Part shown: positions 2,458-58,882 of the stretch, in pieces
Layout of the letters: the number at the start of each line of letters is the position of its first letter
Position numbering within the stretch: the stretch's first letter is position 1
Virus record (IMG/VR): IMGVR_UViG_3300050821_010673
Coordinates: 3,325 to 67,324 of that record
Direction: 5' to 3' (one strand)
DNA: 64,000 nucleotides
From: a virus
Program-made: the position numbers and the translations under genes
The notes under the pieces: model-generated
Database searches by the model: none
What the model was told of the DNA's origin: nothing
The model's input: the letters and a program-made list of their open reading frames with translations, nothing else

Positions 2458-2493
2458 TTTTCGAGGCAAGGGGAAAGAAGAAGGAGGAACGTC

Positions 2494-3831: not shown

Positions 3832-3891
3832 GTTCCCTGGCTCTGGTGAGAGATCGATAGACGAGTTTTTATTGGAACGAAGGAGAAGAAG

Positions 3892-8466: not shown

Positions 8467-8474
8467 GAGGCTCT

Positions 8475-31276: not shown

Positions 31277-32059
31277 ATGGCGAAGAAGAAGGAATACCGG
31301 ATCCAGGCGACCTGCTACGTCTGCTCGAAGGACTTCCTGGCGCGCTACAACATGGTCGCTCGCGCGAAGGTCTGCACGCCGCCGTCCCACGTCTGCAAGC
31401 GCAAGACGCTCAAGGTCCCGGGGCGCCGGGACAAGCTGATCTCCTGCGTCGACGGCTGCTGCAAGTCGAAGTACTACCGCGGCGCGACGCTCTCCGCGAC
31501 GAACGCATCGATCGACTCCAGGAAGTTCCTCGACAACAGAGAATTCCACAAGGTCACGACGGCGTCCCGGAAGCTCGAGGATCCGGCCGGGATCACGATC
31601 CGGTTCATCCTCGAGACCGGCTGCCGGTGCAGCGAGGCCCTGCTCGTCCGAAAGCAGTACATCGAATGGAAGGACGGACCGCTCTCGGTGATCCGGATGC
31701 CGACTCTGAAGAAGGCTGGTCACCCGCTCCTGCCGGTCCACCTCGACAACAACGGGGACTTCTCGAAGGAGCTCCGGGCCTGGGTCAAGAAGCTGAAGCC
31801 GGACGAACTCCTATTCCCGATTGCGAAGCGGACGCTCCAGCGGAACTTCGAGAGGATCCTAGACCGGATCAAGCCGGACAGGTCCAGCCTGATCCATATC
31901 CTCCGGCACACGCGCGCCAGCCGCCTGATCGCCGCCGGGTTCGACCTGAACTACGTCCGGACGCAGCTCCGATGGTCGTCGATCGAGCTGGCGAAGATCT
32001 ACGTCCACACCGAGGAGGATACGGTCGCCAGCACGTTCGACAAGATGAGGGAGAGGTAA
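31277..32059 (+). CDS. tyrosine recombinase with Cys-rich N-terminus
   Basis: TGCRCSE (R), TLKK (K), HILRH (HxxR), LRW in place of LGH, IYVH (Y). Confidence 0.85.
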   Translation: MAKKKEYRIQATCYVCSKDFLARYNMVARAKVCTPPSHVCKRKTLKVPGRRDKLISCVDGCCKSKYYRGATLSATNASIDSRKFLDNREFHKVTTASRKLEDPAGITIRFILETGCRCSEALLVRKQYIEWKDGPLSVIRMPTLKKAGHPLLPVHLDNNGDFSKELRAWVKKLKPDELLFPIAKRTLQRNFERILDRIKPDRSSLIHILRHTRASRLIAAGFDLNYVRTQLRWSSIELAKIYVHTEEDTVASTFDKMRER

Positions 32060-39099: not shown

Positions 39100-40247
39100 T
39101 GGGTAAGCTCGACGTCTCCATGAAGAAGTGGGAGAAGAATCCCGCCATGCTCCGGATCATCCGGATGCTCGAGGACGCCTTCAACTCGATCGGCGAGAAG
39201 ATCCGCACGGACCTCCTGAAGGCCTACCGTGCGCACGCGAAGGAGTCGTACGACGAGTTCGTGAAGGCCATGAAAACCAGCGTCGGAGAGATTACTCCAA
39301 GAGGTGAGCGCTTCCCGAAATTCAAGAACTGGCACGACTATGTTGCGATCGACACGAAGAGGGCCCAGCAGGCCGGTATCTACACCAGCTACGTCTCCAC
39401 CTGGATGCAGGTGAAACAGCTGTATGCCTTCGTCTCCGTGGACTACAGTAAGGCCGAGGAGCAGGCGAACTACTCGTACGAGCGCGCCCGGGACTCCTTC
39501 GTCTACAAGAACATCGGCAAGCTGGCGAACGTCCTCGGTGCCCGTCAGGACCTGAAGAACGCCGTCATCAGGTTCGACTGGAGAGGAAACTACTTCAAGG
39601 GGAACATCCAGGTCTACCTGGAAGGCGCCTACTTCCGAGGCGACGTCGACATCAAGTACGTGATCCGCCGGATCCCGAACGTCACGCCGTACTTCCAGTA
39701 CCCTCTCGTATTCGTCGAGGCGGACGTCAACGGCACGCACTACCCTCGTCCGTCCGAGGAAGAGCTCCGGATCCTCCTCGGCGCCACGAAGAGCGCCGCC
39801 GAGGAGAAGCGGGAGCTCGCCGCTGCGGCCGGGATCTGCCCGATGAGCGGACAGTCCGTCCCGGATTCGCTCCTGAAGGGACTGTACAACAGGATGGCTG
39901 TCTACGTCCGGTGTCCCGGCTGCGGAGCCGTCGCCAGTGTCGTCAAGGACACCTGGAAGTTCCGGAGCCACAAGACGCCGGGCGCCGAACGGGCCGGAGC
40001 TGCAGCGAAGCTCGAGACGGCGGGCTACTGCCCGAAGAGCCGCGAGAAGGTGTCTCCGGCGACGATCGCTACGATCGGTCCAGTTTCAGGATACAGCGAT
40101 CCGAAGGTCGTCTGCGAGGGCTGCGGGCAGATGACCCGGCTCGACGCCAAGAGGGAATGGATCTTTGAAGGCGTCAAGGAAGGTGAGCACGCGACGAAAG
40201 CTCGCGTGACGTCGGCCGTGTATTACAAGCATAAGCTGGCACACTAG
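39099..40247 (+). CDS. hypothetical protein with two C-terminal Zn-finger repeats
   Basis: GICPMS..CPGCG..HK and GYCPKS..CEGCG..HK; stop lies inside a family A site. Confidence 0.65.
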   Translation: MGKLDVSMKKWEKNPAMLRIIRMLEDAFNSIGEKIRTDLLKAYRAHAKESYDEFVKAMKTSVGEITPRGERFPKFKNWHDYVAIDTKRAQQAGIYTSYVSTWMQVKQLYAFVSVDYSKAEEQANYSYERARDSFVYKNIGKLANVLGARQDLKNAVIRFDWRGNYFKGNIQVYLEGAYFRGDVDIKYVIRRIPNVTPYFQYPLVFVEADVNGTHYPRPSEEELRILLGATKSAAEEKRELAAAAGICPMSGQSVPDSLLKGLYNRMAVYVRCPGCGAVASVVKDTWKFRSHKTPGAERAGAAAKLETAGYCPKSREKVSPATIATIGPVSGYSDPKVVCEGCGQMTRLDAKREWIFEGVKEGEHATKARVTSAVYYKHKLAH

Positions 40248-40313
40248 CTAAATAGAGTGCCGTAGGCGTATAATCGTACAACGGGAAGATTATAGAGCGA
40301 CATCGGAGGTAAT

Positions 40314-40772
40314 ATGGATCCATTGTTAGTCGGTGGAGGGGCGCTACTGGCGTACCTCTTTCTCTCCAAGAAGAGTGATCCTGTAGCCAGCCTCACCGAT
40401 CAAGCGATGGCAATTGCTCAGCAAAACATCGACAGTGGAGTTCCAGTCTCTCAGGCGATCAATCATGCGGCAGCCTCTGTTGTAGCTGTATCCCAGAATC
40501 AACCCCCACCCCCATCCCCACTGCAATACTCATCTATTTCCACTCCAACGGCCCCAAGTGGCCCGATCATCAGCCTCAACGACCCGCGCATCAGCGCGGC
40601 GATAGCGAATAAAGACGCTATGTTTGGGGCGGAGATCAGCGCGGTCGGAATGCCAATCGACGTCCGGAACGCGCTCGTCTCTCAAGGCTGGACGTGGACC
40701 GGCTCTGTCTTTAATCCAGGCGGCCTGTACCCCCCTGGTACGGACCCATCGAAGATAATTATCGCTGCCTAG
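40314..40772 (+). CDS. membrane-anchored virion-like protein
   Basis: N-terminal TM (LLVGGGALLAYLFL-SKK); SGVPVSQAI module shared with structural genes. Confidence 0.6.
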   Translation: MDPLLVGGGALLAYLFLSKKSDPVASLTDQAMAIAQQNIDSGVPVSQAINHAAASVVAVSQNQPPPPSPLQYSSISTPTAPSGPIISLNDPRISAAIANKDAMFGAEISAVGMPIDVRNALVSQGWTWTGSVFNPGGLYPPGTDPSKIIIAA

Positions 40773-42812
40773 GTAATCGAAGATAAATTGGTGATCACGA
40801 TGAATCTACTGACAAGTAGTGGGCGGATCCCAAAGAAGAAGTGGTTTGTCATGCGGCGCTCCGACTGGAGGGTTATCTCTCGCCATCAGTTTAAAAGCGC
40901 GGCCTTAGATAAGGCTCTCCTGGTAGCGTCGAAAACCGGACAGAAGTATGCACTTTGCGTGATCGCAATGCATGGTGGAGAGCCGGTCCTGGTTGAGACC
41001 GATTTTATTGGTCCAGAAAACTTTTCTCGTAGGTAATCTTAGTGGAAGAAGATTATAAATGCCTTGTAGAGCTTGCGGAAAGAGTTCAGAGGTCGGCCGT
41101 TGCCGGTATCAGTGGGAGGGGATCGGCCGATTCGCTGCATACCTATTCTTGGAGTGGGGACCTCCCGCGTGGCCGTGGCGTTGGTGGATGAACTGACCAT
41201 GGAAATCACTGTGGATGCCCAGATCTATGCGGATTCGTTCCGTCATCTGATGAGACTCAGAGATAAGACGGCGAAGGGAGCGTGGAAGGTCCGTGGCATT
41301 CGCGATCCACATGGAGAGAGGTTTCGTAGGGCGGCAGAGAAAATATACGGTGACATGGTCGGTGAGGATCCGTGGAGATTCTTCGAGGAGATGACGGAAA
41401 GCCTTGCCTACAAGTTCTCGAATGCCTCTGGACTTGATTACGAACACGCCGCTCGCGCCCTGGTAAACTACAGCAGCGATCCTCGCCCTGGTCTTACCCC
41501 GCTTCTACGGGCAATCGAAAGAGAGGCAGAATGAACGTCGCAGACCTAAAACCAGGGATGTACAAGGTCACTAAGGATGTCGTCAATCCGAAGTCAGACC
41601 GCCGGAGGTCCAGCAGGAACTTCTCAATGTTGCCTAAGTGGGAGAAGGGTCTCAGGGTTTGCGTTCAAATTGAGGAGTCAGAAAACAGGCTCCATCCGAA
41701 CCGCGCAACCATCTTTCGCGCTAGCGGCTATTCATTCTACGGAGTGACCGGCCGCGAAAATGGTGAACTTAACCACTCCGGCTTCGATGCCCTAGTCGCT
41801 GCGCTTCAACCTGTCGAGTGGACCGATGAGGAGTGGGTCCATGTTCACGTCAGCAACGGAGACCATGTCCTCGTGAGACTTTTGGAGTCCGGAAAAATCA
41901 CCAGGGAGGACATCAAGAGGACGCTCCATAGGTAATCTTCTCGGCATACGATTATAAAATGAAAAACTGCTGTGCCTGTGGACGGAAGATCCAGGATACA
42001 CCAATCGACACCTGGGGTCAGTGGTGCGTTCCATGTCAAACGCGGATCAAGCTGGAGACGCCATGGTATTCTCCGGGAATGAGACAGGCCGAGCAGATGA
42101 AGGCCGAGGCTGACTGGAAATTAAAGCATGGTCCTAAACCTATAATCGGAGTTGCTAAGTGCCCGTTCTGCGGAGGAGACGCAAAGCTCGCGACCGCAGA
42201 GCTTGGTCCATATCTGATCGAGTGTCGATGTGGCGCCACTGGAGCCCGGTCTAATACTCCAGAGGGAGCTGCGCTGATGTGGAATGGTAGAGTCGGCTCA
42301 CCTACGTAATCTTCTTGGTGGAAGATAAATGACCGACTTCGTTCACTCTCGGGACTGTAAGAACTTGCTGTGCCGCCTGATCTGGTGGCTCTGCGGTCGT
42401 AGTTAGAGGAGGCTTTATGGATGGCGTGACTCCGGTAACCGTGGTATTCACCCCGGAAGGCGTGACGGTCATCTCAATCAAGGGCAGCACGACCTATAAT
42501 AGGTTGATCCCATGGAAGGAGATGTACAAGCTCGGCCTCCGCGGCGAGAAGTTCACGGGCCCGGCCTTTACGAAGCAACTCGCGAAGAAGGTCGACGAGC
42601 TGGTCGCCTCCAACGTCAAGAACATGGACTCCAACAAGGAGTTTCTGAAGAGGATGCGTCGGACGAAGGTTCTGCTGCCGCCTCGCCCGGCGGCGGCTCC
42701 ATAAGGGAAGTTACGCCGCTGGCCGGGCTGAGCTCCGGGTCGGTGCGTTTGTGTGGGGGATCGGGTTCCGAGCCCGTCCCCCTGTAATCTTATTGGTGGA
42801 AAATAAATAAGC

Positions 42813-43427
42813 ATGACGAAGCCAACTGCCAACCGTCTTTATCCTTGGCAAAGAGAGGGCTACCTTAAACCTAAGGCCCAGCCTCTTTTCGACACGATCA
42901 TCCTCCCGGCAAAGCAACCGCTTGGTAGGTATTATGCGTTTCGGAATCAAATGAAATTCGACGACGGGGTCTACAAGACGCCTGCGGATACGAACATGAG
43001 CCTCTGCGGACAGCTTGGAACTCCTCTCGAGTACGACTTCCGCTGGATGGAACTGCACTTCGAGCGGTACGAGAGGTCTGCAGCGAAGTTTGCGATGAGG
43101 TTCATTCGAGTTAGTTTTATATTTGGACACCAGACCGTGTGGCAAAGGATGTGCGGAGCTGCATGGCGCCCACTGATCGACTGTCCGAAGAATCCGATCA
43201 CCAACGAATCAGCCCAGGTCCAAGCGAAAGCTGTCGCTGATGAATTCCAGAAGAGAGGCGAGTTCTGGCCTCACTACTGGACTCCGGTTGGAGATGTGTA
43301 CTCCCCCAGAAGGATCGACTCGGTCGAAGCGTTCCAGGTAGAGGTCGACTTCTCTGAGCCTGTTCTTCTGAATGACCCAATCCATCTGAAGGTCGTAATG
43401 CAGGACGTGATGTACAGTCCCCACTAG
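42813..43427 (+). CDS. divergent paralog of putative capsid protein 60687-61331
   Basis: QPLFDT..KTPADTNMSLCGQLGTPLEYD versus QPLYDS..KTFLYSNQTQAGSLGTPLSFD. Confidence 0.7.
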   Translation: MTKPTANRLYPWQREGYLKPKAQPLFDTIILPAKQPLGRYYAFRNQMKFDDGVYKTPADTNMSLCGQLGTPLEYDFRWMELHFERYERSAAKFAMRFIRVSFIFGHQTVWQRMCGAAWRPLIDCPKNPITNESAQVQAKAVADEFQKRGEFWPHYWTPVGDVYSPRRIDSVEAFQVEVDFSEPVLLNDPIHLKVVMQDVMYSPH

Positions 43428-43491
43428 ATAATCTTCTCTGCGTACGATTATAGTGGCACATAATCCACATTAGATGCATCTGGGAGGAGAC

Positions 43492-44091
43492 ATGCGCGTC
43501 GCTCTGGTCGTCCTGATGGCGCTCGCCTGCGCCGTTCCGTCCTGCCAGCGCCGGTCTCCGGTCCATGCTCCTCCACCAATCACGGGGACGTCGACCGTGA
43601 TCGGCGGTCCTCTCTTCGTCGGAGGGGCAACCGTCGACGACATGTACCCGAACGGGGATCTGATCTACGCGAAAAGGAGCCTGCCGGACCAGCTCCTCGT
43701 GACCATAAACAATCCGTACAGCGGGCCGATGCCGTCCGGAAGCGGCTTTGTCTGCGTGGCGGACACGAAGAACACGGGAGGCCTCTGTGTTCAGAACTCG
43801 AACTGGCCTCCTGGCGTCGATGGGACATGGCCGAACGAATGCACTCTGATCGGCTTCGGGATGCCGGTCGCGATCCTGACGCAGGGCGACAGGGACATCT
43901 ACGTCCGGCCGAACGAGATCGAGATCGCCCACTTCCAGTACACCGGTGGGGTCCGGAAGATGTCCTTCAACGGGAACACGACGGTTCCCAGACCGGTAGT
44001 GACCGGGTCCCGATCGACCGGGGCGGCCCTGGCGTCCCTGCTCTCGGCGCTTGACCAGCTCGGGCTGATCACGGACAATAGCACGCCGTAG
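43492..44091 (+). CDS. lipoprotein-signal protein with fibre/spike-type C-terminus
   Basis: N-terminal hydrophobic stretch with Cys; VTGSRSTGAALASLLSALDQLGLITD. Confidence 0.6.
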   Translation: MRVALVVLMALACAVPSCQRRSPVHAPPPITGTSTVIGGPLFVGGATVDDMYPNGDLIYAKRSLPDQLLVTINNPYSGPMPSGSGFVCVADTKNTGGLCVQNSNWPPGVDGTWPNECTLIGFGMPVAILTQGDRDIYVRPNEIEIAHFQYTGGVRKMSFNGNTTVPRPVVTGSRSTGAALASLLSALDQLGLITDNSTP

Positions 44092-44583
44092 AGCAGGAGG
44101 GAATCAATGGTCGACCGATGGTAAACATTCTGAGTCACCATCCGACGGCGCTCGGGCTGTCGATCGCGACCCTCCTCGCGACCGTCACAGTCGCCGTCGT
44201 CCGCCTCCGTAATTCGACCGGAAGCGAGCCCAAGTCAGGCTGCAAGAAGTGCGTCGTCTGCGGCGTCGAGATCTACGGGCTCTGTTCCCACTACAGTAAC
44301 ATCCACGACTGGTGCCGCTGCATTTGGCGATAGGCCGTATAATCCGTAGAATATAGACGCGACCGGGTGGGGGATTAGCGTCTGAAGGTCTACGAGATCA
44401 AAGGATCGAACTGCCCGCTCCGGATCCAGGTCTCCGACGATGAGGTCGTCGCTTGCCTGCAGTTCCGGGACGAGCGTGGGGATCCGTTCTACTGGAAGCT
44501 CGTGTCGCCCGACACGGCGAAGAGGCTGATCTCCGAGTTCCAGATGGGTGTCGCCTTCACGCTGCCGGACACGGTCCGGGACA

Positions 44584-44985
44584 CTATCCTCTGAGCTCCT
44601 GGAGCGTCCGCCGGTTGTACCGGAGACCGCGGAAGCCTAGGACCTCGATCGCGATCCGGTCGGCCTCGTCCTGGACGACCCTAGGCGTCCCCTTCGACCT
44701 TGGGTGGGACTTCGTGTGCTCGGGGTACCTCAGGCGCTTCCCGACGACGTGCCCGAGCTCGTGCGCAGACATCCCGAGGACCTCCTCGTCCGTTAGTTCC
44801 GTCTCGGAGGCCTTCGCGAAACAGACCGTGTACACGCGATGATTCGTGTGGGCGAACTGGCGCCACTTCTCGGCGTGGTGTCGGTCGGCGACCGAGCAGA
44901 AGGCGAACTTCACCTTGGCGAGCCACGGGAACTTCATCGCAGCGTGCGCCCGGACGAGAGTGAAGAGGATCTCGACCCGTCCCAC
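44584..44985 (-). CDS. small HExxH zinc metalloprotease-like protein
   Basis: AHELGH ... DEAD. Confidence 0.6.
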   Translation of the reverse strand: MGRVEILFTLVRAHAAMKFPWLAKVKFAFCSVADRHHAEKWRQFAHTNHRVYTVCFAKASETELTDEEVLGMSAHELGHVVGKRLRYPEHTKSHPRSKGTPRVVQDEADRIAIEVLGFRGLRYNRRTLQELRG

Positions 44986-44986
44986 G

Positions 44987-45496
44987 TCAGTCCTCCACGA
45001 CCGGCCGTCGTCCGGTCGGAAGCGGGTTGGTGTCCTTCTTGACGCGGTCGGCGATCGTCTTCAGGTGCCCCTCGATCTTCTCGAGGAATCCGTCCTGTGT
45101 CTGGTTCTTGATCACCTCGACGATTGGCCGGGCCTCCTCGAGGAAAGCCTTGATCGAGTCGGTCGTCTGCTGGTTCGTGCAGAGGCCGGTGTAGGCCATC
45201 CGGACCGTCGCCGAGACCCTTCGAATGCTGGTCAGGGTCGCCGGGATGACGAAGGCGAGACCGAAGGTCATGAGCACGATCGCCGTGATCGGATAGGCGA
45301 CCAGTCCGACGGTCTTCAGGTCCGTGACGCCGAGGACCAGGAGTCCGGCGACGACGCACGCCAGAAGCGGCACCAGGGTCGACGCGAAGATGCAGATCTT
45401 CCAGACCCGACGGATCTCCAGATCGAGTTCCTCCGGCGAGAGGATCTCCGGAAAGACGACGGGCGGGAGCTTTTGTGGTCTGTTCAGGTCGTCCAT
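44987..45496 (-). CDS. two-TM membrane protein
   Basis: Two hydrophobic helices. Confidence 0.65.
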   Translation of the reverse strand: MDDLNRPQKLPPVVFPEILSPEELDLEIRRVWKICIFASTLVPLLACVVAGLLVLGVTDLKTVGLVAYPITAIVLMTFGLAFVIPATLTSIRRVSATVRMAYTGLCTNQQTTDSIKAFLEEARPIVEVIKNQTQDGFLEKIEGHLKTIADRVKKDTNPLPTGRRPVVED

Positions 45497-46032
45497 GGTT
45501 AGGCCCGCGTGCTCCGCTGGTCGTGGTAGACGTGGTACTGATCCTCGAAGCCCGGCTCCATGAGCGGCGTGGACCGGCCGGGCGGCTGGTACGGATTCTC
45601 CCGGGTCTTGAACGGCAAGGACAGCTGGACGCCTGGAACGCTCGGATCGGTGAAGATGATCCGGAGCCAGCTGCCGTCGACCTCCTGGACACGGACCACC
45701 TGGACGACCGTGCCGGTCTCCTTGTGCTGCCAGAATCGGGCGATCCGGATCGACTTATTGTGCGCTCCGACTCCCGGACGATTCTTGATGATGATGTACG
45801 GCGCGTCTCCCATGTCAGTTCTCCTTCTTCTTCGTGGCCTCGAGCTTCGGGAACTGCAGGTAACCCGAGGCCCCCGGGAACCCGAACATCCCACCCATCC
45901 CGACAACCGGGAGCATCCTCATGATGACCTCCAGGCAGATCACGCAGTAATCCAGTCCCATGTACGTCACAGTCCCATTCCCGGCGCAGCGGTAACATGG
46001 CTTCTTTCTCTGCAGGAACTTGAAGAGGTTGA

Positions 46033-46452
46033 TCACCGACGCCTCAGGCTCTTGCTGGCCGCGTACGCCGGATCGGTCTTGGCGGCGTGCCACGCCGTGA
46101 CCTTGGACTTCGCCGACATCAGCAGGCCACCGACCGGAATCAGCCAGGACCACTTCCCCACGATGTCCCGGACCGCCGCGACGGTCGGATTGTCCCCGGC
46201 CGTGTCGATCGTGGAGATCAGCTGAGGCGTCCCTGCAGTGATTGCCGAAGGTGTCGCGATCGGAGGAGCGGTCGCACCGAGTCCCTTGCTGCAGCAGCAG
46301 CAGTTCGTGCAGTCCCCGCAGCCACCCGCACAGACGGAGGCGCGTCCGACCGCCCGACGGACCAGCACCGCGGCGCGGGACCGGTCGACGCCCTGCGCGA
46401 CGAGACTCGCCTGGACGGCAGCGGCGGCGTTGCTCTGTTCTGCGGTCAGCAT
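46033..46452 (-). CDS. putative virion membrane protein
   Basis: GVDRSRA module, Cys run, GLGA, hydrophobic C-terminus. Confidence 0.6.
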   Translation of the reverse strand: MLTAEQSNAAAAVQASLVAQGVDRSRAAVLVRRAVGRASVCAGGCGDCTNCCCCSKGLGATAPPIATPSAITAGTPQLISTIDTAGDNPTVAAVRDIVGKWSWLIPVGGLLMSAKSKVTAWHAAKTDPAYAASKSLRRR

Positions 46453-46454
46453 GT

Positions 46455-46922
46455 CTATTCTCCGGCTTCCTCTACATTTTCCTCGGAGTCCGAGGTCTCC
46501 TCCTCGTCCTCCTCATCCTCGTCGTCTCCTTCTTCTTCCTCCTCCTCATCCTCGTCGGCCTTCGTCGCTGAATCCTCGTCTTCCCCGTCCTTCTCCCACT
46601 CCTCCATGAAATCTCCCCACGAGCCGATCGAGAACTCCTCGTTCTCGGTGTCGTAGAGGATCGTCGTATCGTACGTGTCTCCGAGGTTCACATAGACGAG
46701 GACCGTGTCGCGCCAGTAGTTGTCGATGTGGGTGCCGTCGCCCTGGATCGCCTCGACGCCGTGTCCGCCGAGCGCCTCGTTCGCAAACTCCAGCGCCTTG
46801 TCGATGGCGTCGTCGTCCTCGGATCCAAGAGCTTCTTTAAGCTTATCGGACAGTTCCTCCGCCTTCCCGTAATCGAGATTCGGGAACGCTCTCGTGAGGT
46901 TCTTATCGCTTGGAGACGACAT
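46455..46922 (-). CDS. acidic phage hypothetical protein
   Basis: HGVEAI, YVNLGDTYDTT, SWGD, poly-acidic tail. Confidence 0.7.
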   Translation of the reverse strand: MSSPSDKNLTRAFPNLDYGKAEELSDKLKEALGSEDDDAIDKALEFANEALGGHGVEAIQGDGTHIDNYWRDTVLVYVNLGDTYDTTILYDTENEEFSIGSWGDFMEEWEKDGEDEDSATKADEDEEEEEEGDDEDEEDEEETSDSEENVEEAGE

Positions 46923-46932
46923 ATCTGTATCC

Positions 46933-47190
46933 TCAGCCGAACAGAGTCTTGAGCCAACCGATCGCCGAGAGCGTCGATCCGACCGCCGCGAGCGCCGCAC
47001 CGGACCAGCCGAGCGCGGACTCCGGCTGCGCCCGGGGCGTGACGAACCTCGACGGATTCGCACGGGCCGCCCGGACGACCGCCGAGACGCCGATCGCGAT
47101 GGCTTTGTCCTGGGGAACGCCGTCCACGCTGTAGAGGTGGTAGGCGTACTCCGTTGCCACGTCGATCGCCGTGTCGAGTCTCGCCATCAT
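46933..47190 (-). CDS. small virion membrane protein
   Basis: GVPQDKA module, RANP, C-terminal TM. Confidence 0.6.
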   Translation of the reverse strand: MMARLDTAIDVATEYAYHLYSVDGVPQDKAIAIGVSAVVRAARANPSRFVTPRAQPESALGWSGAALAAVGSTLSAIGWLKTLFG

Positions 47191-48515
47191 TTCACCAGCT
47201 TCAGTTCCGTCTTCGGCGTCTTCGGAACGAGGTTACAGACGACGTCGGCCCACTGAGAAGCCCTCGTCTTGCCCATGCATCGGTTCTCGCAGACCCAGTG
47301 GAGCGCGGCTCGTCCGAGCACATCTCTCTCGGCGCGCGTCAGGTCGACCATGCGCCGGAGGGCGTCCGGCCAGCCGTCGTCCGGGACCAGCTCGATCGGG
47401 AATCCTGCCTGGACCATCGACGGGTACTCCGCGACCGGGGAACACAGAAGCGGGTAGCCCGCCGCGGCGTACTCGAGACCCTTCAAGCCGGACTTGCCGG
47501 TGTTGAACTCGTTGTCCTCGAGCGGGACGATCCCGAAGTCTGCGGCGATGTCAGCGAGCTCGTCGTGGTAGCTATCGAAGTCGACCGGCTTCTTGAGGTC
47601 GACCCACTCGTAGCAGTCCGCCAGGACCTCCGGCAGACGCTCGCCGAAGAGCGTGAAGCGGACCTTCCCTGCGCGTTCCCGCAGGAGCTCCCGGATCGCC
47701 GGGGCGACGATCGCGAGGTCCATCTTGTGGGTCGCCGATCCGGCCCAGAGGATTCGGACGAAGGCCGGGTTCGGCGGCTGCCGCTTCGGGAGGACGTTCG
47801 CCGTCAGCATGTTCGGCAGGACGCGGACGGGCTTTCCGGGATACCTCTCGGCGAAGTGCCGGGCGAGCGGCTCCGTCGTGACAGTCACGAGATCCGCAAC
47901 ACGGATCATGGCGTCGATCTCGGCCTGCTTCTCGGGAGTTCCGTAGACAGTCTTCGCTTGATTCCCGTCCGGGATCGCGTCGAGACGATCGTCGATGTCG
48001 TAGACGATCTTCACGCCCTGGTTCTGCGCCTGACGGGCGATCTCGGTCAGGATGTCCGCCGTGATCAGCTGGATCCAGAGGACGTTGTACCGGAGCGCCT
48101 TCGAGACATCCGGACGGGCCGTCCAGTGCGAGATCACCCGGCCGCCCTCATTGAGCAGGTCCGCGGGGATCATCGCACGGTAGTAGCCGGAAGCCGTCTC
48201 GCCCGCCGGAACGAAGAGCACGTTTGGGATGTTGTCCTTCTGGAAGAGATGCTCGAGGAAGGCGTCCTCGGCCGCGTGCCGGAGGTCCAGGACGTCCTGG
48301 ATGGTCCGGAGCATCCGACCACCCCAGCGGATTGCCAGGACCTTGTAGACCTTGTCGGCCTCCTGGTAGATGTCCGGATGGAAGACCGGCGCCCGATCCT
48401 CGAACTTGATCCTCACGCCGTCGTCGCTCGGGCAGGGGATCCCGCCAGCCCAGAGTCGTACGGCGACCTCCGGGACCGTCCGGATCATGTCGATCAGCTG
48501 CGGCTTCGACGGCAT
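47187..48515 (-). CDS. GT-B glycosyltransferase inside the structural operon
   Basis: SGYYR..P, YDIDD, WAGSATH..D, PL....FN..KS.LK.LEY. Confidence 0.85.
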   Translation of the reverse strand: MPSKPQLIDMIRTVPEVAVRLWAGGIPCPSDDGVRIKFEDRAPVFHPDIYQEADKVYKVLAIRWGGRMLRTIQDVLDLRHAAEDAFLEHLFQKDNIPNVLFVPAGETASGYYRAMIPADLLNEGGRVISHWTARPDVSKALRYNVLWIQLITADILTEIARQAQNQGVKIVYDIDDRLDAIPDGNQAKTVYGTPEKQAEIDAMIRVADLVTVTTEPLARHFAERYPGKPVRVLPNMLTANVLPKRQPPNPAFVRILWAGSATHKMDLAIVAPAIRELLRERAGKVRFTLFGERLPEVLADCYEWVDLKKPVDFDSYHDELADIAADFGIVPLEDNEFNTGKSGLKGLEYAAAGYPLLCSPVAEYPSMVQAGFPIELVPDDGWPDALRRMVDLTRAERDVLGRAALHWVCENRCMGKTRASQWADVVCNLVPKTPKTELKLVK

Positions 48516-48590
48516 ACCTCTCTCCTTCTTCTTCTCCCCGCTAGGCACTCTACAGGACTCCCTTATTCTACGTCCCGAAGAGCGCGTTGT

Positions 48591-49472
48591 CTACTTGAGC
48601 ATGTGCTTGAGCGCCAGGAGACCGGCACCGGCGCCTCCGGCCCAGACGTACCATGGAACGTCCGACAGTTTCGGCAGAGGTGGAAGGGCGCTCGGCCCCT
48701 GGGCCTGTGAGGAAACGACGATCTGCTTCTGGAGAGCGGTCTGAGCCTTTCCGGCGTCGATCAGAGCATTCGTATTGGCGATGTCGTTTCGGACAGCGAT
48801 CAGGACCGCGGCGGTCGGATCGGTGTTGTCCCACTGGTACGGCGCCGCTCCTCCCTCGACGCCGACGGCGTACTGGGTCCAGTCGTTGTAGAGCGCGTCC
48901 AGCTGGTTCCGGATGTCCTGCCGGTCAGCGTCGGAGGACGCGGTGCCGTACGCATCGAGCAGAGCCCGGTGCTGGCTCTGCGTGTCCTGGGCCTTCGAGA
49001 GAACGGCGGCGTCGACCGTCGCTCCGTCGCCGAGGCCGCTCAGGCGGTGGTATCGGGCCGAGGCCCGGTAGACCAGGATCCGGGCACGCTCGGACGGGAC
49101 TCCCTTGGCGAGGAGCTCCTGGAAGACCGAGTCCATGACGGCGGTCTTGTCGATGACCTGATCCGCGCCGAGCCCAGACCTTGACTGCCGGACCATTTTG
49201 GCCGCGGCGTGGACGGTGGACCGGGCCTTCTCCGGAGGTATGCCGTTCACGATCAGCTTGTTGATGACCGGCTCGGTCGCGAACGACGTGTGATCGTGGA
49301 CGGAGTAGGCGTGCATTCCATCCGGGATCATCGTCGCGGTCCGCCATCCCTCGTGGTGATAGCCGTCGTCGATCCCGTGCATCCCGTCCGGAATCATCGT
49401 CGCCGTGTTGACGTAGACGATCGGGTCCTGACGGACGACGCGGACTCCGGGGCGCCTGCTGATCGTTCTCAT
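48591..49472 (-). CDS. putative virion protein with internal repeats and C-terminal TM
   Basis: TATMIPDGMH twice, two G[IV]P.E[KR]AR modules each followed by GLG. Confidence 0.7.
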   Translation of the reverse strand: MRTISRRPGVRVVRQDPIVYVNTATMIPDGMHGIDDGYHHEGWRTATMIPDGMHAYSVHDHTSFATEPVINKLIVNGIPPEKARSTVHAAAKMVRQSRSGLGADQVIDKTAVMDSVFQELLAKGVPSERARILVYRASARYHRLSGLGDGATVDAAVLSKAQDTQSQHRALLDAYGTASSDADRQDIRNQLDALYNDWTQYAVGVEGGAAPYQWDNTDPTAAVLIAVRNDIANTNALIDAGKAQTALQKQIVVSSQAQGPSALPPLPKLSDVPWYVWAGGAGAGLLALKHMLK

Positions 49473-49476
49473 GGTC

Positions 49477-50085
49477 TCATCCTTTCGAGGCGTAGTACGC
49501 GCCAATGATGGTCGCCAGGGCCGCAGTGCCGATCGCGATGGTGGGGAGTCCACCGATCGAGGAGATCGCATCCGGAAGCGAGAGCGGCGTGACCGGAGCC
49601 GCCAGGGCTCCGGACGGCGTCGCCAGGAGGCCGTTCGCCGTGGCATTCTGGATCAGGGCGGACTTCGCCGCCAGCGACTGGGAGTTCTGGGTGATCTGCG
49701 CCTCCTGGAGCTGGATCTGCGCGAGGTTCTTCTGGGCGTCCGTGTTGATCTTCGCGCTCCAGATGGCGCCGACCGCGCCTGCGATGGCACCGACCAGCCC
49801 GGAGGCTCCGCCGATATCCGACGAGGTGGCGTCGGAGAGTCCGGAAGCCTGGGACGTCTTGATCGCGTCGATGTCGACGGCCTGCCGCGCGAAGGCCCGG
49901 ACGGCCGGGAAGAGCGCCGGACCGGGCACGCCAGTCAGGCCCCGGACGACGTCCCTGTAGACGATCGACGTGAACTGGTCCCTCGTCAGACCGCCCTTCT
50001 GGATCGCCGCCGCGACCGACGGCTGGTCGATGTCCGACGCGAAGGCGGCCGAGAGGGCCCGGGCGTAGGCGGTCTTCGGGTCCAT
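49477..50085 (-). CDS. putative virion membrane protein
   Basis: SGLSD, Gly/Ala hydrophobic segment, Gln-rich coil, C-terminal TM. Confidence 0.7.
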   Translation of the reverse strand: MDPKTAYARALSAAFASDIDQPSVAAAIQKGGLTRDQFTSIVYRDVVRGLTGVPGPALFPAVRAFARQAVDIDAIKTSQASGLSDATSSDIGGASGLVGAIAGAVGAIWSAKINTDAQKNLAQIQLQEAQITQNSQSLAAKSALIQNATANGLLATPSGALAAPVTPLSLPDAISSIGGLPTIAIGTAALATIIGAYYASKG

Positions 50086-50087
50086 GA

Positions 50088-51383
50088 CTACTTCTTCCCC
50101 TGCGCCATTGCGAGCGCGGCGACACCTCCAGCGCCGAGCAGGAGGAGCATACCGCTGGACGGACCAGGAGACGGAACGGTCGCTCCGGTCGCCGCCTGCG
50201 CGGAGGCGGACTGAACGGCCTGACTGGCCGCCTGGGCGGTCTGCTGGATGACGGCGAGCGCGGCCGGTGTCGGTTGGAGCTGCCCGGCGGCGGCCTGCTG
50301 GATCAGGGCGGTCTTCTGGTCGAGCGTCAGGCCAGCCCAGACGGTCGGCGTGTACCCGGCCGCCAGGAAGGCCGTCTGGTTCTGCTGGTAGACGGCATCG
50401 GCCTGCTGGTTGACCTGGGTCGTCTGGTAGTCGACCTGGGCCTGCAGGACGGCAGCGTTGTGCTGTCCCTGGGCTTTCGCGGCGGCAGCAGCGGCCTTCT
50501 TCTGCTCGAGAGCAATCGTCGTGTCGAGGATTGCAGCAACGGCCTCGGAGGCCCCTAACGTGAACGGCGACAAGACCGTCCCGACGATCGAGATCACGAG
50601 CGGGCCGATCTTGCCCATCTTCGTGAAGATGTTCTCCTTCGACTTGATGTGCTGAGTCAGGTAGGCCTTCTGCTGGCCGGTCTGCGGGTGCGTGTAGATA
50701 ATCCAGTACCACTGGTTCCCGGCGACGCCGACCTGCTTCTGGATCCCGTCCAGCGTGTCGTCGGAGGCGAAGACCGCCGTGCCGCCGTCCTCAGGAGCGA
50801 GGAATCCGTCCGGCAGGACCGTGTAGCCGGACCAGTCGACCGGGTCGTAGTAGACCCACTTCGAATCCGGGCTTTTCTCCGTCGCTGCATCGAGAGCAAT
50901 CGCGTAGTCCAAGGTCACTTTGTCGTTGATCGTCTCGGTTGGGATTCTCTTGACTGTCCCGTCGATCCCGGGAGGTAACGGAGCGTAGATCGGTGACTCA
51001 GTCGCTTTGGCAGTGACTCGTTTTGTGTATTCCTGAATCCCGTCGTGCGTCACATTCCAGCCGATAACGGTCCCCGAAAGTCCACCGGCCGCGGTCGACA
51101 TCCAGACCATCTCGATTCCGTCGAGGTACCTCTTCAGGCCGTTGAAGGGCTTCGACATGTCGATGTTTGTCCAGGCGCTGGGAGACCTTGGGTCGTTGCA
51201 GACTCCCGTCGTTGGGCCGCCGGGGAGACGTGGCGGCACCTCGGAGGTCTGCGCCGTGCCGTCCGCGAGGTACCGGATTGGACACGGATAGAACTGAACC
51301 GAGATCGGTCCGCCGCCCGGCAGACCGGCGGTCGGATCGACGCTGACTCCGAATCCGAGACCGGGACGTCGGACGAACCTCAC
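50088..51383 (-). CDS. putative virion membrane protein
   Basis: N-terminal GLG, Gln/Ala coil, MLLLLGAGGVAALAM-AQGKK anchor. Confidence 0.7.
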   Translation of the reverse strand: MRFVRRPGLGFGVSVDPTAGLPGGGPISVQFYPCPIRYLADGTAQTSEVPPRLPGGPTTGVCNDPRSPSAWTNIDMSKPFNGLKRYLDGIEMVWMSTAAGGLSGTVIGWNVTHDGIQEYTKRVTAKATESPIYAPLPPGIDGTVKRIPTETINDKVTLDYAIALDAATEKSPDSKWVYYDPVDWSGYTVLPDGFLAPEDGGTAVFASDDTLDGIQKQVGVAGNQWYWIIYTHPQTGQQKAYLTQHIKSKENIFTKMGKIGPLVISIVGTVLSPFTLGASEAVAAILDTTIALEQKKAAAAAAKAQGQHNAAVLQAQVDYQTTQVNQQADAVYQQNQTAFLAAGYTPTVWAGLTLDQKTALIQQAAAGQLQPTPAALAVIQQTAQAASQAVQSASAQAATGATVPSPGPSSGMLLLLGAGGVAALAMAQGKK

Positions 51384-52456
51384 CGTCGCTTACCGCCCAT
51401 CGACATCGCCGCAACGGCGGCGGCACCACCGGCCCCGAGCAGCCAGAGCATTCCGCTGCCACCGCTGCTGGGAGGCGGAACGGGAGTAGGTCCGGACGGC
51501 CCACCGGCCGCGGCGACGTTCGAGGCGGCCTGGGTCAGGAGCGCGAGGACCTGACCGCGCGGCATCACCGTCACCTGGGCCCGCAGCGAGTCCGGGATCG
51601 AGATAAATCCGGAGGTCGTCCGGACGCGGAGCCCGGTCCCGACTCCGTCGGCCGAGATCTCGAAGCGGTCTCCGGGCTGCGTGCCGGACTGGACGAGCGA
51701 CGAGATCTGCGTGATGTCGACCGGGTAGTTCGTGATCGTCTGACCCTCGACGGTCAGCGTGTAGCCGGACGCCGACGGCAGTCCGGCCATCTCGTCGGTC
51801 CCGGTCGTGAACGGCGTGGTGGAAGCAGGAGCGACGGGCGCCGGAGCGGCCGGGACAGGCGCCGGAGCGGCGGTCGATTGGTCTTGAGTTGGAGCCGACG
51901 CGGACGGGTCCGGCGGCGGCTGCTCCTGGACGTAGTTGACCGGTCCCTGCGTCTGCATCTGGTAGGACGGATCCGAACTCGGAACCGGAGCGGGCATCGG
52001 GACAGGCGTCGGCGCCGGAGCGAAGGAGGATGAGCCAGGGTCCGGAGCGGGGGCGGGAGTAGGGGCTGGAGTCGGCTTATTCAGGATCGGCGCCCCGGAG
52101 TGGTCCCGGCGTTTCTTCTTCGTGAGCGCGTGCAGACCGGGATCGATCTTCTTGTGGATCCGAACGATCGAATGCAGGATCCGGCTGTGCAGTTTCGCCA
52201 GCCTCTTGAAGAAGCTCTTGCCGAGTCCATCGCCGAGGCCCGTCGCGGTGCCCGAGGCCTGCCGAATGTTCTCCGTGATCGCATCGGCCAGGGCGCGTTC
52301 CGGGTCCGGCTGCCGAAGGATCCAGTGGACCGCTTCATGGGAGTCCGGATGCTGGAGCTCTTCGGCGATGATCGAACGGGACTTCGGCGAGAGGCGCCGG
52401 AAGTTCTGATCCTCGGGCGTCCCCAGGCCATACCCCGGCGCCGCGTAGACTCGCAT
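51380..52456 (-). CDS. putative virion membrane protein, Pro-rich
   Basis: GLGDGLGKSFFKRL, Pro/Ala linker, MLWLLGAGGAAAVAAM-GGKRR anchor. Confidence 0.7.
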   Translation of the reverse strand: MRVYAAPGYGLGTPEDQNFRRLSPKSRSIIAEELQHPDSHEAVHWILRQPDPERALADAITENIRQASGTATGLGDGLGKSFFKRLAKLHSRILHSIVRIHKKIDPGLHALTKKKRRDHSGAPILNKPTPAPTPAPAPDPGSSSFAPAPTPVPMPAPVPSSDPSYQMQTQGPVNYVQEQPPPDPSASAPTQDQSTAAPAPVPAAPAPVAPASTTPFTTGTDEMAGLPSASGYTLTVEGQTITNYPVDITQISSLVQSGTQPGDRFEISADGVGTGLRVRTTSGFISIPDSLRAQVTVMPRGQVLALLTQAASNVAAAGGPSGPTPVPPPSSGGSGMLWLLGAGGAAAVAAMSMGGKRR

Positions 52457-52470
52457 CGGATCCTCCGTCC

Positions 52471-52869
52471 TTAGATTGGAATCGCTTTCAGGACGACCGG
52501 GACAAGACCGATGGCGATCCTCCCGATGTCCTCGATAATGACCATGAAGGTCGACGGAGCCGCGTCGACGATGTCCTTCACGATCGCGTCGGCCTCCTCC
52601 TTGATTCCCTGACGCCAGAGGTCGACCTGGAGCTTCAGGTCGGCCTTCGCGTCGGGATCCGACGTGATCGCATAGAGGACGAGGGACTTCGCCGCCTCGA
52701 TGCTCGCATCCTCGAGGAAGGCGAGCGCATTCGGGTGCGCGGTGAAGAATCCGGTGGCCGCCGCACCGAGGGCGGCCTTCGCGTCGGCCAGGATCGAGGC
52801 ACCTATGGCCGACCAGTCGAGTCCGGACGGCGCCGGAGCGGGGACGGGTGCGGGAGTCGTTGGACCCAT
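52471..52869 (-). CDS. hypothetical amphipathic protein
   Basis: AAGGAG RBS; helical. Confidence 0.6.
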   Translation of the reverse strand: MGPTTPAPVPAPAPSGLDWSAIGASILADAKAALGAAATGFFTAHPNALAFLEDASIEAAKSLVLYAITSDPDAKADLKLQVDLWRQGIKEEADAIVKDIVDAAPSTFMVIIEDIGRIAIGLVPVVLKAIPI

Positions 52870-52895
52870 GGAATTTCTCCTTCGTTCTTCAGGGA

Positions 52896-53504
52896 CTACC
52901 GATGGACCGACGTGAACAGGGTCAGGTGCCCGCTGACCTCTCCGTTCCAGGCCCGGATCGTCCCGGCGGACAGCTTCGGGTCGCTGGCGACGTAGGCCTG
53001 GAACTGCGCCATCATAGCCTGCTCCTCCGCGGGGTCCACGGAGCGAGGGTCGGCCTTGATCTTCGCGGCGTGGGCGTCGATGGCGGCCTGACCGATGACG
53101 GGGGTCTTCCCGGCCGCCACGTCGGCTGCGACGTACTTCGCCATATCCTTCAGGATCAGCGCCTCGCCCGTCTGGAAGTCCGCCAGCGTCTTTGCGTCGA
53201 TCGCGGAGCATCCGATCGCCAGGGCCAAGGCTCCGACGAGAAGGATCTGGGCCGACGTCTTGATGATGGTTCGGGAGACCGTGTGGCCCGTCGCTCCCAG
53301 GAGCATCGCGGCCACGCCCAGGATCTGCGTGATCTTGTCGTTCGGGTTCGGGTGGATGAGCGAGTTGATCGTCATCGCGGCGCCCACGACGACCGTGAAC
53401 GTGTTGAGCCAGAACTCCGTGGTCTTCCAGGCGACCTTCACGGGAGTTGGAACCGGGCCGTTTCCGGGATTGCCCGTCTGACCGCCCACTGCTTCGTCCA
53501 CCAT
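52896..53504 (-). CDS. holin-like N-terminus fused to lipoprotein-like domain
   Basis: WKTTEFW plus two TMs, then ALAIGC lipobox-like motif. Confidence 0.5.
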   Translation of the reverse strand: MVDEAVGGQTGNPGNGPVPTPVKVAWKTTEFWLNTFTVVVGAAMTINSLIHPNPNDKITQILGVAAMLLGATGHTVSRTIIKTSAQILLVGALALAIGCSAIDAKTLADFQTGEALILKDMAKYVAADVAAGKTPVIGQAAIDAHAAKIKADPRSVDPAEEQAMMAQFQAYVASDPKLSAGTIRAWNGEVSGHLTLFTSVHR

Positions 53505-53574
53505 ACTGTTCTCCTCTATCAATTTTCCCGCCCGCCCCGGGCTTTCCGCCAGTACTCACCGATCGCCGGATCAG

Positions 53575-53600
53575 AACCGCCCGGCTAGGGACGGGCGGTT
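53575..53600 (-). terminator. hairpin
   Basis: AACCGCCC/GGGCGGTT. Confidence 0.4.
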
Positions 53601-53832
53601 GTCCAATTATACTAGTCCGGCTCGCCGGACTGAAGCCGTTTCCTCGTCTCGACCTTCTTCTCGAGCCGGTCGATCAGGAGGTCCAGGTTCCGCAGCGCCT
53701 CGGCCTTCTGGGCGTCCGGGATAGACGGATCTTCGGCGAGCTCGACCAGCTTCTGGGCCTCCTCGCCGAGCTCCCGACGGGAAATCGCCGATTTGATACA
53801 GAGCATTCTCGCCGTCCTCTTTGTCAGGATGC

Positions 53833-54108
53833 TCATACGACTTTACCTCCTCGGTCCCGGTCCCGGTGCCGTTCCATCTGACTCCGGGCGACCCGGAGCA
53901 TCGCCAGGATCTCCTCGGCCTCGTTGTGCTTTGCGGCGTTGCAGGCCTTCAAGTCCTCGTACAACTTCGACAGCCACTTCGTGGCGAATCCGGAGACCGC
54001 CATGAGCGCCGTCCCAAGGGCGACGATGATCGTCCAGGAGACCGGGCTGATGGCTCCGGACGGAGGATCGACCCTGGACATCGCGAGCACCGACAACAGA
54101 AGGTTCAC
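53833..54108 (-). CDS. small TM protein (holin-like)
   Basis: One TM followed by a coiled coil. Confidence 0.5.
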   Translation of the reverse strand: MNLLLSVLAMSRVDPPSGAISPVSWTIIVALGTALMAVSGFATKWLSKLYEDLKACNAAKHNEAEEILAMLRVARSQMERHRDRDRGGKVV

Positions 54109-54146
54109 CCAGCCTCCTCACCCCGGTCTCCATTAGTCTACACCGA

Positions 54147-54875
54147 TCACATCATGAAAGCAGCATTCCTGGTCGTTACGGGTGGAGGCGGCAACGGCGG
54201 CGGACTGCCGACCGTGTGGATGGCCGGAGACGTCCCCGCCAGGACCCCGGCCCAGCCGTTGCCCGAGGTGTCGTCGTAGACGACGATCCAGCCGTCCCCA
54301 CCGTTTCCGGAACTGGTGCCAGGGCCACCAGTCCCCCCGCCGCCCCCACCGCCGCCTCCGGACTGTCCGTTCACGCCGTTCGCGTTGATCGCCCCGCCAT
54401 CCCCGCCGGACGGGCCGTTGCCGTCGCCGTCGGTTCCTCCCGTCGGAACCGCTCCCGCCTGACCGGCCGCCTCCCGGCCGCCGCCGCCGCCGCCGCCTCC
54501 GCCCGGAGCGAGCGCGAAGGTCGTCGTCGCTCCGGTCCCTCCGTCGAACGTCGTGTCCCCGACGGAGTTCGACGCGAGACCCGGAGCGCCGCCGGTCGGC
54601 TCGAAGGGGGCCGCGTGGCCTCCTTCGGCGCGAACGGTGGCGCCATTGATGAAAAAGGACTCGTCCCCGTCCCCGTTGACCCCGAGGCCCTGGCGGATCA
54701 GGTACGGATTCCCGATGATCGTCACGATCCCGGCCTTGCGGGCGTAGGCTCCGGCGCCGCCTCCGCCTCCAGCCGCCGGGAAATTCTGTCCGATTCGGCC
54801 CTGTCCGCCCGAGGCGCGGCACTCGACGAGGACCTTCGCCACCGTCGCGGTCCAGGACGTATCGGAGTGGGCCAT
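54147..54875 (-). CDS. glycine-rich virion (fibre/spike-type) protein
   Basis: GGGGGAGAYA, poly-Gly, GNGGDGWIVV. Confidence 0.7.
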   Translation of the reverse strand: MAHSDTSWTATVAKVLVECRASGGQGRIGQNFPAAGGGGGAGAYARKAGIVTIIGNPYLIRQGLGVNGDGDESFFINGATVRAEGGHAAPFEPTGGAPGLASNSVGDTTFDGGTGATTTFALAPGGGGGGGGGREAAGQAGAVPTGGTDGDGNGPSGGDGGAINANGVNGQSGGGGGGGGGTGGPGTSSGNGGDGWIVVYDDTSGNGWAGVLAGTSPAIHTVGSPPPLPPPPVTTRNAAFMM

Positions 54876-54885
54876 TTCTTACAGT

Positions 54886-55281
54886 CTAAAAGAAGACCTG
54901 GACGGTCAGATCCGCCCCAGCCGTCCCGCTGCCGACGTTCGTGATGACCGCCGCCAGCGCCTGGGTGTCCAGGATCTGGGTGAGCGACAACGAGACGGTT
55001 CCCTCGAGATTTCCGTCGGGAATCGTCACGGTTCCGAGCGTGGAGACGACGGCACCGGTCGACCTCGTGATCAGCTGGATGTCGACGGTGATGTTGGCGC
55101 CGACCGGGGCGACCTTGACCTGAGCGGTGGCCTGACTCACGTAGGTGTTGCGTCCCGGCACCCACAAGATCTTGTCGTTGTCGGTCGTCGTCAGGTTGCC
55201 GGGGACCGTGAAGACGGCGGTCGGAGAGGAGTCGAGGAACTGCGACGACCGGCCCGTATTGAACCTCTGAACCGTCGGCAT
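54886..55281 (-). CDS. beta-rich structural protein
   Basis: APVGANITVDI, VGSGTAGADLTV. Confidence 0.65.
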   Translation of the reverse strand: MPTVQRFNTGRSSQFLDSSPTAVFTVPGNLTTTDNDKILWVPGRNTYVSQATAQVKVAPVGANITVDIQLITRSTGAVVSTLGTVTIPDGNLEGTVSLSLTQILDTQALAAVITNVGSGTAGADLTVQVFF

Positions 55282-56000: not shown

Positions 56001-56003
56001 AGT

Positions 56004-56303: not shown

Positions 56304-56313
56304 CGTCCCTCCG

Positions 56314-57552: not shown

Positions 57553-57561
57553 TCGTTCACA

Positions 57562-58869: not shown

Positions 58870-58882
58870 CGTCTCTCCTTCT

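Follow-up and report, generated by a model that had tools for sequence, protein, structure and literature searches.

The gene that we call ORF A (positions 42813-43427 of the window, + strand, 204 aa) codes for an A-type single jelly-roll protein which, by homology and an AlphaFold2 model, is an accessory paralogue of the putative major capsid protein encoded by ORF B (60687-61340, - strand), itself a B-type single jelly-roll protein of 217 aa when read from a GTG start. The window is the whole stretch of DNA analysed, 64,000 of the 67,324 bases of one virus contig. Comparisons among related genomes indicate that A is exchangeable cargo, and that it is neither a recent duplicate of B nor an essential shell protein, because the island that holds it is unmatched in two close relatives, one of these (G002) carries no A-type gene at all, and the A-type genes found elsewhere are not orthologous to it. 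The reading that we prefer, with a probability of roughly 0.35, is that A would serve as an optional, exchangeable subunit or binder of a shell made of B-type protein.

Extra capsid genes are known, but as fixed parts of a structural programme; here such a gene appears to be dispensable and exchanged between distantly related viruses, and it moves about in the motif-bounded units that host-takeover genes also use. If A is built into particles, it would provide a simple means of varying a jelly-roll shell, and if it is not, it would be a first example of a capsid-derived conflict gene in viruses of prokaryotes. Either way, A belongs to a large unnamed protein family (132 cluster representatives at 50% identity), and its carrier belongs to a virus group whose entire structural block, bar one glycosyltransferase, is without a match in Pfam or PHROGs.

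Homology and predicted folds of ORF A and ORF B

The initial annotation had described A as a divergent paralog collinear with B, and this similarity is borne out by BLASTP, by reciprocal best matches and by profile-profile alignment. ORF B was found as annotated except for its end: position 61331 marks the first ATG, but a GTG start extends the ORF to 61340. BLASTP aligns A with B at 32% identity over 56 aa, from QPL[FY]D to LGTPL.[YF]D (pair E 3e-6), and the two proteins are reciprocal best matches among all 545 ORFs of the genome (E 0.001). The alignment by hhalign of the A family (3 sequences) with the B family (35 sequences) is significant, with a probability of 97.8% and an E value of 7.9e-13 over 151 aligned columns, and it recovers the shared blocks that had been listed previously, including FG..T and STE.F.V. 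When the family HMM was run against the 545 ORFs, A (3e-58) and B (1.7e-66) were detected and no other ORF scored below E 7. Among 133 family proteins, comprising 131 cluster representatives, P0003 and A's own record P0001, BLASTP matched A to 131 and B to 74, with many intermediates between them. The reciprocal matches, the profile alignment, the many intermediates and the specificity of the HMM indicate that the similarity of A and B is homology, not chance, and that A is a true but distant homologue of B within an unnamed family of viral jelly-roll proteins of roughly 200-300 aa.

Database relatives number two for A, at 51-55% identity, and 74 for B, many of them on contigs of 60-72 kb, and a protein identical to A is recorded on 2 contigs. 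An exhaustive profile search with the A family returned the 132 cluster representatives mentioned above at E<=1e-3. Across 79 aligned A-type relatives, A keeps the consensus at 10 invariant or nearly invariant columns (M1, which is the start Met, D27, F43, K55, N61, L68, G69, P71, G105 and F174), and it also keeps all four of the blocks that are conserved between the A and B branches. Neither A nor B was matched in Pfam, PHROGs, NCBIfam or PADLOC, or by tblastn in the GenBank phage collection. A scan of IMG/VR with A1 profile patterns gave no match, and fused or longer forms of A were absent from 160 candidates, which is weak evidence. The neighbouring structural proteins (318, 241, 372, 458, 297 and 412 aa) all gave hhalign probabilities of 0.7% or less against the family. 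An 82-aa frame at window positions 26508-26756 matches the C-terminal part of the A-type HMM very weakly (E 0.24-0.67), and is either a remnant or a product of chance.

The AlphaFold2 model of A (79-row alignment, pLDDT 92.1) and the model of B (35-row alignment, pLDDT 77.8) are both eight-stranded jelly rolls with their secondary-structure elements in identical order, so that the two proteins are predicted to share a fold, in agreement with the proposed paralogy. For the B model, the top solved match in Foldseek is the SPV1 capsid (E 1.3e-3), and the top match in a library of viral models is SPV1 VP4 (E 7e-4). An aligner independent of Foldseek scored SPV1 6oj0_T at Z 8.1 for B (137 aa, rmsd 3.5) and 8.0 for A (131 aa, rmsd 3.4), and HHIV-2 at Z 7.6 for B (118 aa, rmsd 3.9) and 7.3 for A (121 aa, rmsd 7.9); the A model reached Z 8.3 against SPMV (125 aa, rmsd 3.5). 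Capsid chains of sphaerolipoviruses, satellite viruses, PBCV-1 and PRD1 follow after SPV1, and jelly rolls that are not capsid proteins come within 1-2 Z units of the capsid matches. Z scores of about 8 and Foldseek E values of 1e-3 are middling, and for these models they establish the jelly-roll fold, not capsid function. No solved chain was found at E<0.2 with the A and B profiles. Prediction of a complex between A and B scored 0.00 in 2 of 2 runs, which were made without controls and are uninformative either way.

The non-capsid matches bear on a reading that we regard as unlikely, namely that A keeps the fold but serves a role outside the capsid, for example as a binder of glycans or host proteins. 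Against the A model, the jelly rolls of monooxygenases, GOLD domains and carbohydrate-binding modules reach Z 6.5-7.2, near the capsid chains; the genome is rich in glycosyltransferases; and A has an extra helix (134-147) and a FWPHYW stretch at a place where B has a poorly modelled loop. On the other hand, the two branches conserve the same four blocks, which points to a constraint common to A- and B-type proteins, and A has neither a signal peptide, as judged by eye, nor a match to a ligand-binding family.

The virus, its structural block and ORF B

Genes in the first ~44,300 bases of the window are read on the + strand, and those from base 44,500 to the end on the - strand. The + strand part encodes a DEAD_2-type helicase, an AAA_24 ATPase, a D5-like primase-helicase, several glycosyltransferases and methyltransferases, ThyX, SprT- and HNH-like proteins and, at 31277-32059, a tyrosine recombinase. 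The single match of the - strand part to Pfam or PHROGs is the glycosyltransferase. The structural block, which consists of window positions 44500-64000 on the - strand together with genome bases 1207-4029, encodes ~15 proteins, one of them of 940 aa. A terminase, a portal, an HK97-type capsid protein and a packaging ATPase were all missing from the scanned ORFs, and a Walker A search returned the two replication ATPases, one doubtful frame and nothing else. Overall GC is ~0.65, with lower-GC islands at 5-8, 17-20, 23-29 and 40-44 kb. The gene for the D5-like primase-helicase (window 4657-7062) lies largely inside the first of these, where GC is 0.51-0.53, and the lower-GC islands thus hold more than small accessory genes. 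The record is probably incomplete at its ends, since the ORF at window 62621-64000 runs off the contig end (its counterparts in relatives have 608-1259 aa) and since ~3.5 kb separate the sequences in G002 that match the two ends of this contig.

An IMG/VR search with the B profile found eight related loci. Five related records were searched whole, four of them complete with terminal repeats and one 94% complete, and G001 and G002 were compared over their full sequences. The record G006, with locus L018, contributes just one host hint and one row of the family tree. L018 was binned with a Thermoanaerobaculia bacterium and P0013 with a Thermoplasmata archaeon; because these bins contradict each other, no host is named. 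Given the unmatched structural block, a jelly-roll protein whose best match is SPV1 and the arginine-rich protein next to it, these may be soil viruses of an undescribed group with genomes of 67-72 kb. Our literature search found no description of soil viruses like these, but it was limited, and the group may be published.

ORF B is likely the major capsid protein, a role suggested by its jelly-roll fold, its conservation, its codon usage and its fixed neighbourhood. All relatives conserve it, and its 89.6% DNA identity to G002 puts it among the best conserved stretches; in the best tblastn segments its orthologues are 95% identical in G001 and 94% in G002. GC by codon position is 0.58/0.44/0.90 in B and 0.56/0.40/0.63 in A, and the structural genes next to B have GC3 values of 0.84-0.94. 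Close relatives share the order arginine-rich protein, B-type gene, 318-aa protein. The gene for the arginine-rich protein (61492-62610, - strand, 372 aa) lies upstream of B, is kept in relatives and has no family match. The gene for the 318-aa protein (59598-60554, - strand) follows B-type genes in all relatives seen, the distant L019, L020 and L022 among them; its product has no match in Pfam or PHROGs and no profile similarity to the A/B family. The B-type gene is present as one copy per genome, beside the 318-aa gene in the structural block. In L020 the 318-aa protein has tandem paralogues, at 7836-8849 and 8842-9867.

Divergent copies of shell proteins have been kept in other virus genomes. 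In T4, gp24 stands beside gp23 as a divergent shell-protein copy in the same genome, where it is conserved and part of the late operon, and chloroviruses and other giant viruses carry extra capsid-protein copies that are scattered and variable in number. The presence of A beside B is similar in this respect, but the fold differs from that of the T4 proteins, and the copy lies in an accessory island, appears to pass between lineages and is missing from a close relative. SPV1 (Portogloboviridae), in the excerpted text of PMC8459092, builds its shell from two single jelly-roll proteins, VP4 forming hexamers and VP10 pentamers, and has a nucleoprotein core. Two single jelly-roll proteins are likewise predicted in the virus described here, and for each model the top solved match, or one close to the top, is an SPV1 capsid chain. 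The arginine-rich protein that adjoins B can be compared with the nucleoprotein core of SPV1, a suggestion of our own. Unlike SPV1, these viruses have genomes of 67-72 kb rather than 20 kb, neither A nor B has sequence similarity to any solved chain, and VP10 is an obligatory pentamer protein whereas A-type proteins seem dispensable and mobile.

Taken at face value, the precedents would make A an essential second shell protein at the pentamer vertices, as VP10 is to VP4 in SPV1 or gp24 to gp23 in T4. We consider this very improbable. Although a major capsid protein with a divergent paralogue is a classical pattern (for SPV1, as excerpted from PMC8459092), and although A and B are both predicted to be single jelly rolls, neither the position nor the sequence of A is conserved among relatives, no A-type gene was found in G004 with the A1 profile, and the complete relative G002, whose B protein is 94% identical, has none. 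The last of these facts in particular makes a vertex role unlikely.

The hypervariable island and its boundary motif

ORF A lies in a hypervariable lower-GC island (40250-44100, + strand) of 8 co-oriented small genes, whose flanks are conserved in relatives and whose content is not. The lower GC noted for A at the outset holds at third codon positions (0.63, against 0.90 in B) and equally in 1-kb windows, which give 0.55-0.58 around A and 0.65-0.67 around B; the other genes in the lower-GC part of the island have GC3 values of 0.54-0.66. Also as described, A is on the strand opposite to B, 17 kb away, and is bounded by sites at 42785 and 43429. The first of these copies of a short motif, termed the B site, reads TAATCTTATTGGTGGAAAATAA (42785-42806, + strand) and ends 6 nt before the ATG of A; the second (43429-43450, + strand) starts 2 nt after its TAG stop. 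Other copies, at 40271, 41034, 41933 and 42307 (together spanning 40271-42328, + strand), are located at junctions between small genes.

The motif is a 22-nt palindrome of the form TAATCTT..AAGATTA. The pattern TAATCTT-N(6-12)-RATWA has 7 occurrences at 6 loci, all within 40271-43450, against 0.01 expected in shuffles. A loose search that allowed 2 mismatches found 5 against 7.3 expected, no better than chance, and it is the exact pattern that is decisive. Three upstream copies provide the stop codon of the gene before them, as the TAA of GTAATC, and the following gene has its ATG directly against the motif at 41034 and 42307 and 4 nt beyond it at 41933. Hairpins predicted at the motif are weak (-2.6 to -6.8 kcal/mol, z -1.9 to +0.6) and are not followed by a T run. 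Promoter-like (sigma-70) sites numbered 3 against 1.8 expected, with a 9-of-12 match at just one of the 6 motif sites. The weak hairpins and the lack of sigma-70-like promoters suggest that the motif is conserved as sequence. Its position, across a stop codon and with its end at or close to the start of the following gene, is more suggestive of a signal for translation or for a gene junction.

Comparison with relatives places the breaks in similarity at this motif. By blastn, window positions 40237-44240 have no counterpart in G001 or G002, while both flanks match. By tblastn, none of the eight island proteins (40314 to 44091) was found in either genome, and the 40314 gene is the only one with a homologue in G003. 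The equivalent islands of G001 and G002 nevertheless contain 3 and 4 copies of the same motif, and in G005 an A-type gene that is not orthologous to A has near-identical motif copies on both sides. Window positions 42453-42807 are matched at ~99% by contigs from two other soil studies, but inside the motif copy upstream of A, or immediately beyond it, these contigs cease to resemble the window or one another; the comparison involves contigs only. The gene at 42453-42807, immediately before A, encodes 95 aa without a family match, and recurs in other soil contigs in a different context.

The gene content of the island is mixed. A Lar-type gene (41959-42309, + strand) carries a restriction-alleviation domain, matching Pfam PF14354 at 36.2 bits (cut-off 28.6) and NCBIfam TIGR03655 at 27.1 bits, which is below the cut-off of 39.6. 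The neighbours at 40314 and 43474/43492 had been thought to look virion-like, but no match to either was found in Pfam, PHROGs, NCBIfam or PADLOC; by eye, the 40314 product has a hydrophobic N-terminus and the 43474 product one that resembles a signal peptide. The initial annotation went on to propose that the array stores alternative virion components. One part of that proposal stands, in that A belongs to the capsid-like family and forms an exchangeable unit bounded by the motif, but by HMM search it is the sole member of that family among the 8 genes from 40314 to 44091, another is of Lar type, and the rest are without matches. As judged from these searches, the island is a general accessory region rather than a store of virion parts.

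By analogy, the nearest described thing to the array is the PeSL cassette, though the promoter and terminator features that define it are not found here. PeSLs are reportedly treated by Comeau et al. 2014 as mobile regulatory cassettes of T4-type phages. In the excerpted text of Arbiol et al. 2010 (PMC2839356), they are repeated motifs in the hyperplastic regions of T4-type phages, and combine a strong sigma-70-like promoter with a terminator stem-loop. The likeness is that a short repeated intergenic motif is concentrated in a hyperplastic region full of non-essential small genes, and that insertions, deletions and replacements between close relatives fall at the motif; the difference is that the motif described here has no strong sigma-70-like promoter and no terminator stem-loop.

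Co-oriented small genes parted by a repeated inverted-repeat site, in a genome with a tyrosine recombinase, are also reminiscent of an integron. However, the recombinase scores 28.5 bits where the cut-off for TIGR02249 is 265, and its gene is ~8 kb from the motif array. The sites are 22 nt long and do not show attC-type features; attC sites are several times longer. The integron was excluded on the integrase score and the short sites.

A second intergenic palindrome, GGCAC-N(10-18)-GTGCC, is found at window positions 18544, 23088, 25740, 25992, 26249, 27288, 30666 and 40238. It often reads GGCACAGAAG...GAGTGCC and is located directly before a Shine-Dalgarno-like stretch and a start codon. Copies are concentrated in the other lower-GC islands; G002 has 3, and in L009 one follows directly after a B-site copy.

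Descent and possible roles of ORF A

Three of the five related records contain a second copy of the family, which in G001 is located at 8142-8792 (stop-to-stop six-frame HMM search), and the other two, G002 and G004, show the B orthologue only. The same six-frame search of G002 found B and no A-type gene. A tree of 145 rows splits the family into two main parts, the B-type and A-type branches. B is united with its orthologues in a single tight clade (support 100). The group to which A belongs also includes P0002, P0003 and L019_2541 (SH-aLRT 99), and the second copies of G005 and of G001/G003 form two other subclades in the same main part as A. A is not orthologous to B: it is on the other main branch, it does not adjoin the 318-aa gene, and G002 lacks it. 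An AU test on a 46-row subset, under the simpler LG+G4 model, rejected a tree in which the four second copies were constrained to one group (p-AU 3.6e-6, a value weakened by the group having been chosen after the tree was seen).

The B-type gene of L019 itself is 26% identical to A and far from the clade of B in the tree. Nevertheless, a gene of this distantly related virus is nearer to A than is the second copy in G001, though the B protein of G001 is 95% identical. This pattern indicates that A was spread by horizontal exchange, and does not fit a duplication of B within this lineage followed by vertical descent. Between duplication and capture from another virus, both of which had been raised for A, the tree favours capture and does not support a recent duplication of B. 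An A-branch gene accompanies a B-branch gene in 6 of the 6 contexts that could be inspected (those of A, L009, L010 and L011, and two in L019), so the A branch may be an old lineage dedicated to second copies.

A is shorter at the N-terminus than its closest relatives, P0002 and P0003, and does not have the N-terminal stretch found in most relatives of both branches. A YVVGxP stretch belongs to this part in both branches, and many proteins of the A branch have a membrane helix or a conserved helical domain there; when 10 longer relatives were searched, Pfam returned no domain for their N-terminal extensions. The relative of A in L019, which is 46% identical and resides in a different genome, is also short and low in GC3 (0.64), suggesting that the short form of A persists. 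L019 carries two A-type genes in tandem, 3 nt apart, at 1600-2538 (312 aa, N-terminal extension present) and 2541-3119 (192 aa, no such extension, GC3 0.64); they share a strand with that contig's B-type gene and lie 8 kb upstream of it.

A gene brought in by recombination at the motif could be a passenger or a decaying relic without a function in this virus. The foreign composition of A would be expected of a passenger, as would its short N-terminus relative to P0002 and P0003 and the absence of an A-type ortholog from close relatives, but we hold this to be quite improbable, given that its frame is intact, that the conserved residues are all kept, that its model is confident, that its short, low-GC3 relative persists in L019, and that the identical protein is recorded on 2 contigs.

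We prefer to think of A as an optional component of the B-type shell, probably acquired from a different virus of the assemblage through recombination at the motif. Because A keeps the 10 near-invariant residues and the four blocks shared with the B branch, as well as the predicted fold, it would be expected to make the same contacts as a capsid subunit. It would then be an exchangeable subunit or binder of the shell, for example at special capsomer positions, and would alter the particle yet not be needed for building it. Several features of A weigh against this. With no N-terminal arm, domain or membrane helix, it may fail in normal assembly; its GC3 is far from that of the structural genes; and it neither is syntenic nor tracks the phylogeny of B, as a structural partner should. 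Its position on the replication and accessory strand, beside the Lar-like gene, suits a conflict gene better than a structural one.

The same pattern points to another reading, possible though doubtful, in which A would be a conflict protein derived from a capsid protein and not produced as part of the structural programme, the interference or decoy that the initial annotation had offered as an example. A might engage the capsomers of co-infecting related viruses and spoil their assembly, or it might occupy a host defence sensor that recognises capsid proteins. Presence, absence and replacement of A-type genes among close relatives, their horizontal exchange, the location of A in a hypervariable island with a Lar-like anti-restriction gene and its placement on the strand opposite the structural block are all consistent with such a role, and the missing N-terminal arm would fit a subunit that binds but cannot propagate a lattice. 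Against it, we know of no capsid-derived conflict protein in viruses of prokaryotes; the A branch is old and diverse, and many of its members have long N-terminal domains or membrane helices, which suggests a long-held function of either kind; and the two A-type genes of L019 lie on the strand of its structural genes, 8 kb upstream. The absence of a PADLOC match for A is uninformative here, as that library consists of defence proteins. Precedent favours the optional shell subunit and the genomic pattern favours the conflict protein, and our weighting of the two reflects this.

Fv1 and enJS56A1, the capsid-derived restriction factors of animals, are host genes that stem from retroviral Gag. Should A act against the assembly or uncoating of related viruses, they would be its functional analogues, captured and altered capsid genes used against kin; unlike these host genes, A is virus-borne. 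A broader conjecture, to which we give little credence, would unite several of these elements: undescribed portoglobovirus-like soil viruses, with genomes of 67-72 kb and no recognisable packaging ATPase, terminase or portal, in which motif-bounded cassettes carry an old A-type branch, derived from capsid genes, from lineage to lineage, and this branch serves as a weapon or shield in conflict, a capsid mimic that blocks the assembly of kin or blinds capsid-sensing immunity.

Among 5 runs there was no RNA data set, and read cover of A was found in run X1 only, which is probably the source sample. Two genes downstream of the A-type cassette in L009 (G005), a gene at 443-1027 (- strand) appears by eye to encode an HNH plus AP2-like endonuclease. 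In L011 (G001), the A-type gene has a Cpn10/GroES gene (1109-1483, - strand; Pfam E 6e-24) immediately downstream; phage T4 needs a GroES-like protein of its own for the folding of its capsid protein.
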